Below are positions 24,550-32,000 of a DNA stretch of 32,000 bases, in pieces. The stretch's first letter is position 1. Every line of letters starts with the position of its first letter. Where the stretch lies: assembly GCA_964496765.1 (NCBI GenBank), contig CAZCAP010000004.1, positions 1-32,000 of the forward strand. Direction: 5' to 3'. The translations under genes and the position numbers were made by a program. The notes under the pieces were generated by a model. The model was not told where the DNA came from, made no database searches, and worked only from the letters and a program-made list of their open reading frames with translations. Source of the DNA: an uncultured archaeon. GTDB lineage: Archaea; Iainarchaeota; Iainarchaeia; Iainarchaeales; CSSED10-239.

Positions 24550-24984
24550 TTATTCTTTATCTTCCTTTGGCTTTTCTTCCTTTGGTTTATCTTCCTTTGG
24601 TTTATCTTCCTTTGGCTTTTCTTCCTTTGGTTTATCTTCCTTTGGCTTATCTTCCTTTGGTTTATCTTCCTTTGGCTTATCTTCCTTTGGTTTATCTTCC
24701 TTTATTGGTTCATCATGTGTTCCTGTTCTCTTTAATCTATATTCAAGCTCAATTTCTCTTAAAGCTTTCATATTATCATAAACCTTAATATATGCCTTTG
24801 AGATTTTAGTACCATAATCCTGTGATATCTTATCAATAACAATAAGCTTATCATCAATACCAAGGAGTGCGGCAATCTTTTTTTGGACCTCCTGTCTTGA
24901 AGGAGTCTTGTCAGCTCTTATTTTTGCTAAGACAGATGTTCTATGTAACAATTCATTTTTTGATTTTTCCATTTCTATTTCCAT
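24550..24984 (-). CDS. rps24e: Ribosomal protein S24e with a 56-aa C-terminal KEDKP-repeat extension
   Basis: The core N-terminal region (NELLHRTSVLAKIRADKTPSRQEVQKKIAALLG...AYIKVYDNMKALREIE) is S24e-like. The C-terminus is (KE[D/E]KP)x10. AGGTGA SD upstream. Confidence 0.9.
   Translation of the reverse strand: MEIEMEKSKNELLHRTSVLAKIRADKTPSRQEVQKKIAALLGIDDKLIVIDKISQDYGTKISKAYIKVYDNMKALREIELEYRLKRTGTHDEPIKEDKPKEDKPKEDKPKEDKPKEDKPKEEKPKEDKPKEDKPKEEKPKEDKE
24553..24708. repeat. 15-nt tandem repeat, about 10 units (CTTTGG[CT]TT[AT]TCTTC on the + strand), in frame within the S24e 3' end
   Basis: Counted directly: units at 24565, 24580 ... 24685 plus partial units at both ends. Confidence 0.95.
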
Positions 24985-28701: not shown

Positions 28702-30456
28702 CTATTTTTCATCTTGTACTTTGTATCTTCTTTTTTGTGCTTCCTGTATTAATTTTTCTTCATCACCAGTAAACTGGAGCCCAATCTCTTCAAGCTTTTT
28801 AATATCTTCAAGAGAAATATTAACTGTAAACACAGAATCTTCTGTGAAATCCTTTAGGTAAGTTACTCCCTTAACTGAAATTGCTGCTTCTTTATCGTAA
28901 TCTAAAGAAATAAGCTTGTTACCTTCTGTTTGAATTCCTTCAACAATACCAAACTCTTTTCCATCTTTATCAAGCAAAGTGGTTCCTGGAACTAATTTAC
29001 CAGCTAAAACTTTAACTCCAAAGATTGCGGGTTTACTTACTCTAAATATACAATTTTTTACAACCTTAATCTTACAAGGATATACAATTTCTTTTAATAA
29101 CTTATCTTTTTCTTGCCTGTTTAATTTAATAAGCCAAGCCTCATAGTCTTCTATTAATTTATATATAATATTGTTTTTAAATATAGGGATATTGCTCCCT
29201 ATTGCTTCTTCTTCAAGTTCCTTTGATATATTTGAATTAAATAAAAATAAAACACCTTTCTTTGGATCTCTCTCATTAATTATTTTTAATTCCATTATAT
29301 CTTTATTTGTAACATCTCCGATATCTGATCTTGCAATGCAGATGAAACTTTTCCCCATTAATTTAATTAATGCTTCTAAAGATCCTAATGTATCTGATTT
29401 AACAAACGCACCCTCTGCCTCTCCATTCGTGATTACACAAGATAATGGTTTTGTTTTTAATGTTTCTATTGCTTCCCTATCATCACAGGAAACAATTACA
29501 CTTCCTGGGATGCATTGATCTAGGCTTGGTGCAACAATCTTAACTCCAGATGCAGCAGATACAAAATCTACATTCTTATAATCTCTTTTTTTATTTACAG
29601 CAGACATTACATCTAATTTTAATAGAGCTTTTATTTTAGTTTCAATAACTCCAGATTTGGATATAAATGCAATTTTATCTTTAACTCTTAATATTCCTTG
29701 ATAAACTATAATATCTGCAGTTGAGCCTACGCCTTTAATTTCTCCAGATTCAAGTATTGTTCCCTGTGCATAATCTTTTTCATCTAACTCTAATTTAGTT
29801 CCTAAAAATTTTTGAGATAATGTTGCTAGGAAAAGAATAGATTCTGATAATCCATAACATTTTTCAGCAGATATTGGAATGATTGTAACTTGTTTTTTAA
29901 AGTCTGTAACCCTATCAAATCTTTCAGCAGCAAAACCATGATTATATAATTGTCCAACAATTTTATAGATTTGTTCATCAAGTCTTTCTGAAACTGATTT
30001 TGATTGTTTTTCAAGAACACTAGATATATCATTACCTTCCTGATACCAACCCTGTAGAAGATCAACCTTGTTTGCAACAACAATAAATGGTACCTTATAC
30101 ATTTTCAATATATTTAATGTTTCTATATCTTGTGCTTGAAGGCCTTTTATAATATCAACAACTAGGACAACAAGATCTGCTAAGCTCCCTCCTCTTTCAC
30201 GAAGATTATCAAATGCATTATGTCCAGGAGTATCAATAAACAATAATCCAGGGATTGTAACTTCAAATTTAAATTTTGTTAATAGGTGACCACAACTATG
30301 TATGATTGTATCATAGGTAATTTCTGTAGCCCCAATGTGTTGTGTTATTCTACCAGGCTCTTTATCTGTAATACAGGTTCCTTTTATCTTATCTAGAAAA
30401 GTTGTTTTTCCAGAATCGATGTGACCCATGATTGTAATTATTGGTTGTCTATACAA
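28702..30456 (-). CDS. infB: Translation initiation factor aIF5B (IF-2 homolog)
   Basis: GHIDSGKTT, DTPGH, NKVD GTPase motifs; 584 aa. TTG start with a GGTGA SD 7 nt upstream. Confidence 0.9.
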   Translation of the reverse strand: MYRQPIITIMGHIDSGKTTFLDKIKGTCITDKEPGRITQHIGATEITYDTIIHSCGHLLTKFKFEVTIPGLLFIDTPGHNAFDNLRERGGSLADLVVLVVDIIKGLQAQDIETLNILKMYKVPFIVVANKVDLLQGWYQEGNDISSVLEKQSKSVSERLDEQIYKIVGQLYNHGFAAERFDRVTDFKKQVTIIPISAEKCYGLSESILFLATLSQKFLGTKLELDEKDYAQGTILESGEIKGVGSTADIIVYQGILRVKDKIAFISKSGVIETKIKALLKLDVMSAVNKKRDYKNVDFVSAASGVKIVAPSLDQCIPGSVIVSCDDREAIETLKTKPLSCVITNGEAEGAFVKSDTLGSLEALIKLMGKSFICIARSDIGDVTNKDIMELKIINERDPKKGVLFLFNSNISKELEEEAIGSNIPIFKNNIIYKLIEDYEAWLIKLNRQEKDKLLKEIVYPCKIKVVKNCIFRVSKPAIFGVKVLAGKLVPGTTLLDKDGKEFGIVEGIQTEGNKLISLDYDKEAAISVKGVTYLKDFTEDSVFTVNISLEDIKKLEEIGLQFTGDEEKLIQEAQKRRYKVQDEK

Positions 30457-30540
30457 TAGTTTTCACCAGGTTTAAATTATTAAAATTAATTTCTAATTAC
30501 AAGAAAAAAAATTAAAAAAGAAAAAATGGAATTACTGTGT

Positions 30541-30747
30541 TCATTCATTTTTCTTTTGCCCTCTACCTTGTCTTTTCTTTTCAATATGATAGGTTTCAGT
30601 CCATCTTGTTTTATGAGACTTGTATTTTTTATCAAGTGTATTCTTTTTACACTTTGATGAGCAAAAGTTACTTACAGTTCCTTCTTTCTTTGCATACACA
30701 ATTCCTGTTCCTTTAGGAATTTCCTTTCCGCAGAATGTACATTTCAT
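30541..30747 (-). CDS. rpl24e: Ribosomal protein L24e
   Basis: MKCTFCGKEIPKGTGIVYAKKEG...FCSSKC zinc-ribbon signature. Confidence 0.9.
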   Translation of the reverse strand: MKCTFCGKEIPKGTGIVYAKKEGTVSNFCSSKCKKNTLDKKYKSHKTRWTETYHIEKKRQGRGQKKNE

Positions 30748-30763
30748 ATTTAGTTACCCCTTT

Positions 30764-30973
30764 TTAATGGACTCTTATGTCCTTTGCTTCTGTTTCTGGG
30801 TTCATTAAGATAAGGATATCTCCCTTACTTACTGTTCCACGTACATTTCTTTTTTTGATACGGCCTTTTTCATAACCATCAAGAATCTTACAAAGAACTT
30901 GTGTAGCTTCTCCACGTGAACCTGTTCTACCTACAATTTCTACGATTTCAGCAGGTATACCTTCTTCAGCCAT
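30764..30973 (-). CDS. rps28e: Ribosomal protein S28e
   Basis: PAEIVEIVGRTGSRGEATQVLCKIL...GRIKKRNVRGTVSKGDILILMNPETEA; 69 aa; AAGGAG SD. Confidence 0.9.
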   Translation of the reverse strand: MAEEGIPAEIVEIVGRTGSRGEATQVLCKILDGYEKGRIKKRNVRGTVSKGDILILMNPETEAKDIRVH

Positions 30974-30996
30974 ATAGATCTACTCCTTTATTTCTT

Positions 30997-31173
30997 TTAT
31001 TCAGCTTTTGGTTCTTCAGCTTTTGGTTCTTCAGCTTTTGGTTCTTCAACCTTTGGTTCTTCAACCTTTGGTTCTTCAACTTTTGTTTCTTCAACTTTTG
31101 TTTCTTCAACTTTTGGTTCTTCAACTTTTGGTTCTTCAACTTTTGTTTCTTCAACTTTTGTTTCTTCAGTCAT
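30997..31173 (-). CDS. Stand-alone repeat-only ORF (58 aa): MTE-(ETKVE)2-(EPKVE)2-(ETKVE)2-(EPKVE)2-(EPKAE)3
   Basis: ATG at 31173 is preceded by the same AAGGAG-containing leader as S28e. TAA at 30997-30999. Not in the ORF track (under 60 aa); the track instead lists a TTG-initiated alternative frame. Confidence 0.45.
   Translation of the reverse strand: MTEETKVEETKVEEPKVEEPKVEETKVEETKVEEPKVEEPKVEEPKAEEPKAEEPKAE
31000..31164. repeat. 15-nt tandem repeat, 11 units (TTC-A[GA]C-[CT]TT-TG[GT]-TTC on the + strand)
   Basis: Counted directly from 31000 in 15-nt steps, with a higher-order 60-nt (2+2 unit) pattern. Confidence 0.95.
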
Positions 31174-31197
31174 ATAAATCTAACTCCTTTATTTTTT

Positions 31198-31857
31198 TTA
31201 TTCAGCCTTTGGTTCTGCAACCTTATGCTCAACTTTTGGTGCTTCCTTGTGTTCAACCTTTGGTTCTACAACCTTATGCTCAACTTTTGGTGCTTCCTTA
31301 TGTTCAGCCTTTGGTTCTACAACCTTATGCTCAACTTTTGGAGCTTCCTTGTGTTCAGCCTTTGGTTCTACAACCTTATGCTCAACTTTTGGAGCTTCCT
31401 TGTGTTCAGCCTTTGGTTCTACAACCTTATGCTCAGCTTTTGGTGCTTCCTTGTGTACAGGTGCTTTATGTTCAGCCTTTGGTGCTTCCTTGTGTTCAGT
31501 TATTTCCTGAATCTTACCAATAAGTGATTGTAATTCTTTTGTTACAACTCCAGCATCCATTACAGCTATACAACTAGCTTTTGCAGAAATTCCAACTGCT
31601 TTTCCAAGATCATCCTTTGTTTTCACATAGGTGTATGGAATGTTTTTTTCTTTTGCAATTACAGGGATGTGCATTACGATTTCAACAGGTGTAACATCTT
31701 CAGCAATAACAACTAATTTAGCTGTATTTCTTTCAATTGCTTTAGTAACTTCATTTATACCTATCTTTATCTTACCTGATTTTGCAATTTTTTTAAGAGT
31801 CTCATCTTGAAGAGATCTTAAATCCTCTGATACAGAAAACTTTATGTAATCTGACAT
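31198..31857 (-). CDS. rpl7ae: Ribosomal protein L7Ae (K-turn binding) with an ~100-aa C-terminal repeat extension
   Basis: The core (KIGINEVTKAIERNTAKLVVIAEDVTPVEIVMHIPVIAKEKNIPYTYVKTKDDLGKAVG) is canonical L7Ae. Residues ~119-219 are 17-aa HKEAPKVEHKVVEPKAE repeats. GGAGGT SD. Confidence 0.9.
   Translation of the reverse strand: MSDYIKFSVSEDLRSLQDETLKKIAKSGKIKIGINEVTKAIERNTAKLVVIAEDVTPVEIVMHIPVIAKEKNIPYTYVKTKDDLGKAVGISAKASCIAVMDAGVVTKELQSLIGKIQEITEHKEAPKAEHKAPVHKEAPKAEHKVVEPKAEHKEAPKVEHKVVEPKAEHKEAPKVEHKVVEPKAEHKEAPKVEHKVVEPKVEHKEAPKVEHKVAEPKAE
31201..31455. repeat. 51-nt tandem repeat, 5 full units plus a degenerate partial unit up to ~31500, in frame within the L7Ae 3' end
   Basis: Units begin at 31201, 31252, 31303, 31354 and 31405, with only a few substitutions between them. 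Confidence 0.95.
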
Positions 31858-32000
31858 AATACTTCTACCTCCATGGTTTTGTCATCGGTTTTTTTGTTAA
31901 AAAATAGCTTTAACTATATATATTATATATAGGGAAAAGTATATAAATAGATAGATGAAAAAGAAAAAGAAAAAATTAAATTATTGAAAAAAGCAATTCT

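Follow-up and report, generated by a model that had tools for sequence, protein, structure and literature searches.

We describe here an additional open reading frame (ORF), ORF58, that encodes 58 amino acids (aa) and lies between the genes for ribosomal proteins L7Ae and S28e in a 32,000-nucleotide (nt) stretch of archaeal DNA (the window, meaning the whole stretch that was analyzed). As read from sequence comparison, the locus is the outcome of a tandem segmental duplication of the junction between the L7Ae tail and the S28e start, and this duplication is limited to one species of Iainarchaeota. The alignments show the duplication itself and its restriction to this lineage, establish that the 3' end of ORF58 is orthologous to the ancestral L7Ae tail, and reveal microhomology that was present before the event. 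That the locus as a whole is best explained by this duplication together with the origin of ORF58 as a young, near-neutral ORF through fission of the L7Ae tail is, in our judgment, likely. The source organism is an archaeon of the Iainarchaeota (DPANN), where we placed it because its relatives bear the titles Candidatus Iainarchaeum, Candidatus Forterrea multitransposorum, and Diapherotrites. The features on which the argument depends are as follows (SD, Shine-Dalgarno).

31198..31857, minus strand: L7Ae gene, 219 aa, with a core of ~118 aa and a His/Lys/Glu/Pro/Ala/Val repeat tail of ~100 aa (ORF list and Pfam)
30997..31173, minus strand: ORF58, 58 aa, MTEE followed by 11 (T/P)K(V/A)EE units (ORF list)
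30764..30973, minus strand: S28e gene, 69 aa (Pfam PF01200, E 2e-22)
31162..31216, minus strand: junction copy 1, comprising the L7Ae tail end EPKAE, TAA, an in-frame AAA AAA TAA, AAGGAG, a 10-nt spacer, and ATG ACT GAA GAA (ORF58 start)
30962..31015, minus strand: junction copy 2, comprising the ORF58 end EPKAE, TAA, an in-frame AAG AAA TAA, AAGGAG, a 9-nt spacer, and ATG GCT GAA GAA (S28e start)
31184..31189, minus strand: SD-like AAGGAG of ORF58, with GGAG 10 nt from the ATG (read from the sequence)
30983..30988, minus strand: SD-like AAGGAG of S28e, overlapped by the ancestral L7Ae stop TAA (30988-30990)

The two copies of the L7Ae-S28e junction

The first-pass annotation of the window had reported that positions 31158-31216 are ~90% identical to positions 30958-31016, and alignment and blastn bore this out: copies 1 and 2 aligned over 55 nt with 4 substitutions and 1 single-base indel (90.9% identity). 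The elements that it had listed for each copy, namely EPKAE-stop, an AAGGAG leader, and ATG-[GA]CT-GAA-GAA, were read in both. Specifically, each copy contains the EPKAE codons (encoded in both cases by GAACCAAARGCTGAA), TAA, an in-frame AAR AAA TAA, AAGGAG, a 9- or 10-nt spacer, and ATG-[A/G]CT-GAA-GAA, with the resulting TAA AAR AAA TAA stretch located on the minus strand at 30988-30999 and 31189-31200. As the annotation had also stated, ORF58 (30997-31173) starts with MTEE, where S28e starts with MAEE, and ends in EPKAE-stop like the L7Ae tail.

When copy 1 was compared by blastn against the whole genome (0.74 Mb; 737,780 bp in 26 contigs, 86% complete, 29% GC), copy 2 was the sole match above noise (E 7.6e-12), and the next-best matches spanned 16 nt (E 0.007). 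A self dot-plot, which the annotation had proposed as a check for 30900-31550, was made over 30900-31560 and scored by offset for 20-nt windows with at least 18 matches. Three offset classes were observed: in 31460-31252 the offset is 51 nt or a multiple of it, in 31170-31011 it is 15 nt or a multiple of it, and a 201/200-nt offset is confined to 31219-31162. Since the region is A-rich and of low complexity, and AAAGGAGT-like SD motifs occur at many genes (49 occurrences genome-wide), we considered whether translational constraints and composition could have generated the junction similarity by convergence or chance, with no duplication involved. However, no other gene start matches copy 1 beyond 16 nt, compared to 55 nt for copy 2, and the derived TAA AAR AAA TAA common to both copies, together with orthology to the sister-species junction described below, points to common descent. 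We therefore assign convergence a negligible probability.

The segments on either side of copy 1 consist of two in-frame tandem arrays, which were delineated with Tandem Repeats Finder (TRF).

31201..31460, minus strand: 51-nt x 5.1 in-frame array, EHKEAPKVEHKVVEPKA units of the L7Ae tail (TRF score 471, 95% matches)
31000..31168, minus strand: 15-nt x 11.3 in-frame array of ORF58 (TRF score 275, 96% matches)

The 51-nt array is the highest-scoring tandem repeat of the genome. By TRF consensus, the 15-nt unit GAACCAAAAGTTGAA matches each of two sub-motifs of the 51-nt unit, GCACCAAAAGTTGAG and GAACCAAAGGCTGAA, at 13/15 positions, in agreement with the earlier statement that the body of ORF58 is a 15-nt repeat that is a sub-motif of the L7Ae unit. 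The 15-nt array contains identical doublets and is organized at a higher order of 60 nt (T T P P T T P P P P P), as is typical of recent slippage.

Repeats with periods of 15 and 51 nt are poorly resolved by short reads, so a mis-join or a chimera of strain variants could in principle have produced the arrangement. Three short contigs end inside the L7Ae 51-nt array, and the number of 51-nt copies differs between assemblies of the same 100%-identical population, with five in the window and in one further contig (L031) and three in two others (L032 and L035, in which L7Ae is 185 aa). We regard this copy number as uncertain or polymorphic, reflecting either true polymorphism or assembler collapse. 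The junctions themselves were reproduced, however. Gene calling gave the exact 58-aa product on 9 contigs; six of these, each from a different JGI or ENA assembly, match the window without any difference in the ORF58 DNA and at both junctions. The samples that yielded the contigs are JGI 3300028298, 3300028619, 3300029674, and 3300028168, ENA ERZ27248937/ERZ27248895, and SRR8437247. Three more contigs that are 100% identical across S28e-aIF5B (JGI, ENA, and one Logan run) carry ORF58 sequence directly upstream of S28e. At least six assemblies made with different pipelines (JGI, ENA MEGAHIT k141) contain the unique joins of the two junctions, ATGACTGAAGAAACAAAAG and GCTGAATAAAAAAAATAAAGGAGTTAG, in identical form; within 30900-31560, the unique joins include …GCTGAATAAAAAAAATAAAGGAGTTAGATTTATATGACTGAAGAAACAAAAG… and …GCTGAATAAAAGAAATAAAGGAGTAGATCTATATGGCTGAAGAAGG…. 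Moreover, a mis-join would require a common k-mer far longer than the 8-9-nt microhomology found at this locus, and the two junction copies differ at five positions and therefore do not represent a collapsed or duplicated identical segment. Given the agreement of at least six assemblies and the five differences between the copies, an assembly artefact does not appear to be supported, and we consider it highly improbable.

The ancestral junction and a proposed order of events

L7Ae-S28e junctions were taken from 27 genome-set loci, 22 metagenome loci, and 23 species-representative loci. In a genome of the same genus (G001, 92.4% nt identity downstream), L7Ae is followed directly by S28e with a 14-nt gap, and a third species (L107-L113, ~88-89% nt identity) likewise has one L7Ae-S28e junction with a 14-nt gap. 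At about 45 other family loci, L7Ae directly precedes S28e with gaps of 10-33 nt, and no intervening ORF was found between L7Ae and S28e at family loci holding both genes. The sole apparent exception, the 105-nt gap of L004/L076, arises because a stretch of N breaks the reading frame of the L7Ae tail; a metagenome contig that is apparently from the same organism (L044) encodes an uninterrupted 256-aa L7Ae and has an 11-nt gap. In the relatives, the L7Ae stop usually abuts or overlaps the S28e SD (TGAGGTG, TAGGTGA, TAAAGGAG). The junction comparison that had been suggested for related genomes thus returned the undivided arrangement, with no extra ORF, in both sister species and in the wider family.

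The alignment with G001 also identifies where ORF58 came from. L7Ae of G001 is 187 aa, and its tail ends in ...HKEAPKAEHKEAPKAEHKPKPKVEEPKAEEAKAEEAKEDKE-stop followed by TAAAGGAGTAGATCTATATGGCTGAAGAAGG. The last ~60 nt (four units) of ORF58 and the spacer downstream of it align almost base for base with this tail end and spacer (CCAAAGGTTGAAGAACCAAAAGCTGAAGAA[C/G]CAAAAGCTGAAGAA plus the spacer), the four ORF58 units corresponding to PKVEE-PKAEE-AKAEE-AK of the G001 tail. ORF58 and the G001 tail have in common a linkage of synonymous and non-synonymous variants, CCAAAGGTT then CCAAAAGCT, while the linkage is reversed in the 51-nt units of L7Ae in the window's own genome (G000). This makes ORF58 orthologous to the distal portion of the tail that the ancestral L7Ae carried.

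The same comparison polarizes the changes at the junctions. Whereas G001 reads GAA GAC AAG GAA TAA (EDKE-stop), both copies in G000 read GAA TAA AAR AAA TAA; of the two TAA codons, the second corresponds to the ancestral L7Ae stop, and the first is derived, a premature stop in place of GAC. Since the derived TAA is common to both copies, the premature stop predates the duplication. Its effect was to take away the ancestral ...DKE end and to increase the distance between stop and start from 14 nt to the present 23-24 nt. Copy 2 is identical to G001 across TAAAGGAGTAGATCTATATGGCTGAAGAAGG, and the S28e copy is unchanged over 31 nt relative to G001. In contrast, the differences between the copies that can be polarized with G001 all fall in copy 1 (3/3: a T inserted into the spacer, a C-to-T change, and ACT in place of GCT). 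These changes in the ORF58 start copy would fit relaxed constraint on a new start region. In the third species, the S28e protein is identical to that of the window and the L7Ae tail is wholly different (…EHKENPKTEEKE); the identity of the S28e protein despite ~88-89% DNA identity indicates very strong purifying selection on S28e.

Direct repeats that could have mediated the duplication are present in unduplicated relatives at both breakpoints. In G001, GCTGAAGAAG occurs twice in the distal tail (AEE of the PKAEE/AKAEE units, at -58 and -43) and again at S28e codons 2-4. In the third species (L107), CTGAAGAA precedes its counterpart in S28e codons 2-4 at -31, and in another locus (L041) it does so at -87, -69, and -48. 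Unlike these three, the tail of L042 did not yield a direct repeat of CTGAAGAA(G). Overall, (G)CTGAAGAA lies 31-87 nt upstream of S28e codons 2-4 in the relatives that carry it. The tandem duplication postulated in the first-pass annotation would have its breakpoints in the L7Ae tail and after codon 4 of S28e, and it agrees with the single junction of the relatives, the orthology, and the microhomology.

We propose the following order of events. The ancestral L7Ae would have had a disordered tail with proximal HKEAPKAE-type and distal (P/A)K(V/A)EE units and a stop abutting the S28e SD, and (G)CTGAAGAA would have been present at two places, in the distal tail units (AEE) and in S28e codons 2-4 (AEE). 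A premature stop would have arisen in the L7Ae tail first and then been copied along with the junction, when replication slippage or unequal exchange between the direct repeats duplicated a segment containing distal tail units, the stop, the SD, and the ATG. The new ORF would have been born as ATG-GCT-GAA-GAA plus tail units behind its own copy of the S28e initiation region, leaving a truncated tail on L7Ae. Afterwards, in-frame slippage would have expanded the 15-nt unit to 11 copies in ORF58 and the 51-nt unit to ~5 copies in L7Ae.

The size of the duplication had been put at ~200 nt, a value that holds for the present spacing of the copies (200-201 nt). The original segment was probably shorter, ~35-100 nt judging from the distances in the relatives, and the first ORF was perhaps 8-25 codons long; growth of the 15-nt array after the event accounts best for the spacing seen today.

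Probable translation and possible function of ORF58

ORF58 encodes MTEE followed by TKVEE, PKVEE, and PKAEE units and ends in PKAE-stop. With 23 Glu and 11 Lys, the peptide has a net charge of -12. It derives from the non-domain L7Ae tail and contains no L7Ae domain, and it had no S28e (PF01200) domain match, only its first four codons (M-x-E-E) being S28e-derived. A Pfam search returned no family at E <= 0.01; a search of a 5.8-billion-protein collection yielded 3 word-sharing candidates, none significant; and a sequence search of the PDB gave only a chance match (E 0.082). In a single-sequence AlphaFold2 (AF2) model, the predicted template modeling score (pTM) was 0.15 and no DSSP elements were assigned. 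ORF58 would thus specify an acidic peptide without predicted secondary structure. As for its earlier description as an independently translatable 58-aa polyampholyte, the inherited SD and ATG would be the basis for independent translation, and the net charge makes the peptide more acidic than a balanced polyampholyte.

ORF58 is probably translated, since it inherited a working start site (SD and ATG) within a ribosomal-protein operon that is presumably highly expressed. The 3' end of the 16S rRNA is GGATCACCTCC. A 5-mer SD core is present at 18% of crude gene starts compared to a 3% background, mostly with spacers of 5-11 nt, and the SD-ATG spacers of ORF58 (10 nt) and S28e (9 nt) both lie inside this range. 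Folding near the ORF58 start is weak (-3.4 kcal/mol), and the coding strand between L7Ae and ORF58 has no terminator-like T-run. We also considered two other routes to an ORF58 product. Read-through or frameshifting from L7Ae into ORF58 was rejected: although the two share a frame, a fusion would have to pass three in-frame stops (TAA, TAA, TAG). Termination-reinitiation coupling is an unlikely driver of ORF58 translation because the L7Ae stop is 24 nt from the ORF58 ATG, and in Haloferax and E. coli experiments a stop-start distance of ~20 nt nearly abolished coupling (PMC10666635).

The near loss of coupling at such distances also favors the alternative that the duplication is real and ORF58 is not meaningfully translated, in which case the additional 200 nt would be an enlarged transcribed spacer held open by its multiple-of-3 period. 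Two of the three forward frames of the array and its reverse frames are open, such that openness is uninformative, and the lengthening of the SD-ATG spacer to 10 nt and the change from Ala2 to Thr2 are found in the ORF58 copy only. Nevertheless, the AAGGAG is complementary to the 16S 3' end, and an in-range 10-nt spacer, an ATG, and an unstructured start are all present, as they are for S28e 200 nt downstream; ORF58 is also called by gene callers in every assembly. We therefore regard an untranslated spacer as improbable.

A different possibility is that ORF58 is a selected, functional micro-protein, in which a distal acidic L7Ae tail acts in trans and growth to 58 aa was itself selected. Possible roles would be those of an acidic partner or chaperone for Lys-rich tails of ribosomal or small ribonucleoprotein (sRNP) proteins, or of a free ribosome-associated acidic peptide. 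Tail material does seem to matter, since a Lys/Glu/Pro-rich L7Ae tail of 24-140 aa was present in every family member examined (L002-L022, L038-L059, L075-L086) despite lineage-specific repeat units with fast turnover. The ORF retains its SD, ATG, and frame and occurs in every contig of the population that was sampled; the L7Ae tail, at ~100 aa, may have kept its length through compensatory expansion; and each of the three strongest tandem repeats of the genome codes for a peptide of this kind, either on a ribosomal protein or beside one. However, cross-species conservation of ORF58, which would be a signature of purifying selection, was not found: ORF58 occurs in one clonal population and has no orthologue in the two sister species. 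In addition, its initiation region is the copy that is gathering changes, no homologue, domain, or fold was found (Pfam, PDB, protein collection, AF2), and growth of the repeat by slippage requires no selection. A selected function is accordingly unlikely in our estimation, and ORF58 is probably a young, near-neutral by-product of gene fission of a low-complexity tail, without selected function.

Several observations nonetheless weigh against the account of duplication and tail fission in its present form. The left breakpoint is not exactly placeable, with repeats on both sides, and L7Ae now ends in a 51-nt-type unit (...HKVAEPKAE), which means that an extra deletion or remodeling of distal units must be assumed. 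The 15-nt period would keep the ORF58 frame open whether or not it is translated, just as it opens the antisense frames and one more forward frame. By chance, 5 changes over 54 nt would spare the SD and ATG of copy 1 ~39% of the time, so that their intactness is uninformative. All three polarizable junction differences are on the ORF58 initiation copy; given the synonymous divergence (dS) of 0.14-0.40 between G000 and G001, this fits neutral drift of that copy. Finally, the contigs bearing ORF58 are all 100% identical, so they reproduce the assembly and provide no evolutionary test of constraint.

Repeat tails, gene surroundings, and comparison with known systems

The L7Ae gene matches Pfam PF01248 (L7Ae/L30e/S12e/Gadd45) over residues 19-103 only (E 2.8e-26, 91.5 bits compared to a cutoff of 22.1). 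Its tail contains 23 Glu, 23 Lys, and 12 His, for a net charge of 0. L7Ae of archaea outside the family measures ~120 aa; one order-level relative departs from this, at 173 aa (L025). A second repeat tail is encoded by the S24e gene (24550-24984, minus strand), which has a C-terminal PI-(KE[D/E]KP)x10-KEDKE; the underlying 15-nt x 9.8 repeat at 24557-24703 consists of KEDKP units. The L7Ae tail, ORF58, and the S24e tail are the three top-scoring tandem repeats of the genome, and all three code for K/E/P peptides that belong to ribosomal proteins or lie beside them. This lineage is therefore characterized by slippage-prone K/E/P-coding arrays on translation proteins.

On the minus strand, the genes at the end of the window are ordered L7Ae, ORF58, S28e, L24e, and aIF5B, the last two being as follows.

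30541..30747, minus strand: L24e gene, 68 aa, downstream operon partner (Pfam PF01246, E 7.7e-17)
28702..30456, minus strand: aIF5B gene (IF2/aIF5B domains by Pfam)

In order-level relatives (L023-L030), L24e is followed by nucleoside diphosphate kinase (ndk), often with a dUTPase/dCTP-deaminase-like gene, before aIF5B. In the family of the window, aIF5B comes directly after L24e (30457-30540 in the window), and ndk is missing from that position. An Rfam scan of 30400-32000 returned only a sub-threshold SAM-II match within the L7Ae coding region, which we attribute to chance (21 bits compared to a gathering score of 44, E 0.42). Two plus-strand ORFs, 30916-31527 (203 aa) and 31008-31523 (171 aa), are Phe/Trp/Leu-rich and run antisense through the 15-nt and 51-nt arrays; we rejected them as artefacts of periodicity that overlap the Pfam-confirmed L7Ae gene.

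The event is a clean example of the origin of a new cistron, with the ancestral state preserved in sister species and the breakpoint microhomology present before the event, and it lies within an otherwise invariant L7Ae-S28e-L24e cluster. If the peptide is made, its output would be at the level of a ribosomal protein in a genome-reduced DPANN archaeon, and the locus would constitute a natural experiment on the action in cis versus in trans of a K/E/P-rich L7Ae tail that is found family-wide. The stronger interpretation is that the birth of this cistron in a conserved ribosomal operon yields ORF58 at ribosomal-protein levels as a free, disordered, acidic peptide that acts in trans on Lys/His-rich tails (L7Ae, S24e, and other translation proteins); we consider this doubtful. 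As a single-lineage event that is probably neutral, its value is illustrative, and it is not mechanistically new.

Several known systems resemble parts of this locus. The archaeal stalk protein aP1/L12 has a conserved dimerization domain and a conserved C-terminal factor-binding motif and is universal in archaea. Like it, ORF58 would be small, acidic, partly disordered, and encoded among ribosomal-protein genes, although ORF58 lacks the dimerization domain and the factor-binding motif, has no Pfam match, and occurs in one species only. KKE/D repeat tails are found on the eukaryotic proteins Nop56, Nop58, and dyskerin/Cbf5, which are partners of the L7Ae homologues Snu13 and Nhp2, and archaeal L7Ae is a common component of the box C/D and H/ACA ribonucleoprotein machinery. 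The likeness, which is one of composition, lies in charged, Lys/Glu-rich, disordered C-terminal repeats on box C/D and H/ACA core proteins. In the archaeon, however, L7Ae itself bears the tail, the repeat contains regularly spaced Pro and, in the genus, His, there is no sequence homology, and archaea have no nucleolus.

In bacterial and archaeal ribosomal proteins, low-complexity regions (LCRs) are dominated by A, E, and K, and archaeal S24e, L10, and L12 are among the ribosomal proteins richest in them (Ntountoumi et al. 2019, PMC6821194). The L7Ae and S24e tails described here are likewise Lys/Glu(/Pro/Ala)-rich, terminal, and located on ribosomal proteins. L7Ae is not among the proteins highlighted in that study (PMC6821194), however, and the region is encoded here by near-perfect DNA repeats and is partly a free-standing ORF in one species. 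A further likeness of composition is with the proline-rich (Glu-Pro)n/(Lys-Pro)n spacer of TonB. Like it, ORF58 is an E/K/P repeat of short period in which Pro recurs every few residues, predicted to be extended and non-globular. The TonB spacer joins two functional domains of a membrane protein, whereas ORF58 has no flanking domains, signal, or membrane segment. TonB is also listed among LCR-rich proteins (PMC6821194).

The closest parallel is with gene fission. The formation of new cistrons by gene fission through microhomology-mediated tandem duplication is a known general class of change in prokaryotic gene structure, and the event type seen here, in which tandem duplication together with repeat expansion splits a gene or gives birth to a cistron, is known. 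In keeping with this class, 8-10-nt direct repeats flank exactly the duplicated segment in sister species, two adjacent co-oriented ORFs jointly cover the former C-terminal region of one protein, and the start region of a neighbor is reused by the new ORF. The locus differs in that a low-complexity tail rather than a folded domain was split off, that the start region came from the downstream gene, S28e, and included its first four codons, and that the new ORF later grew several-fold by microsatellite-like expansion. Taken together, the new form of this known event is the detachment of a disordered tail by a downstream initiation region.

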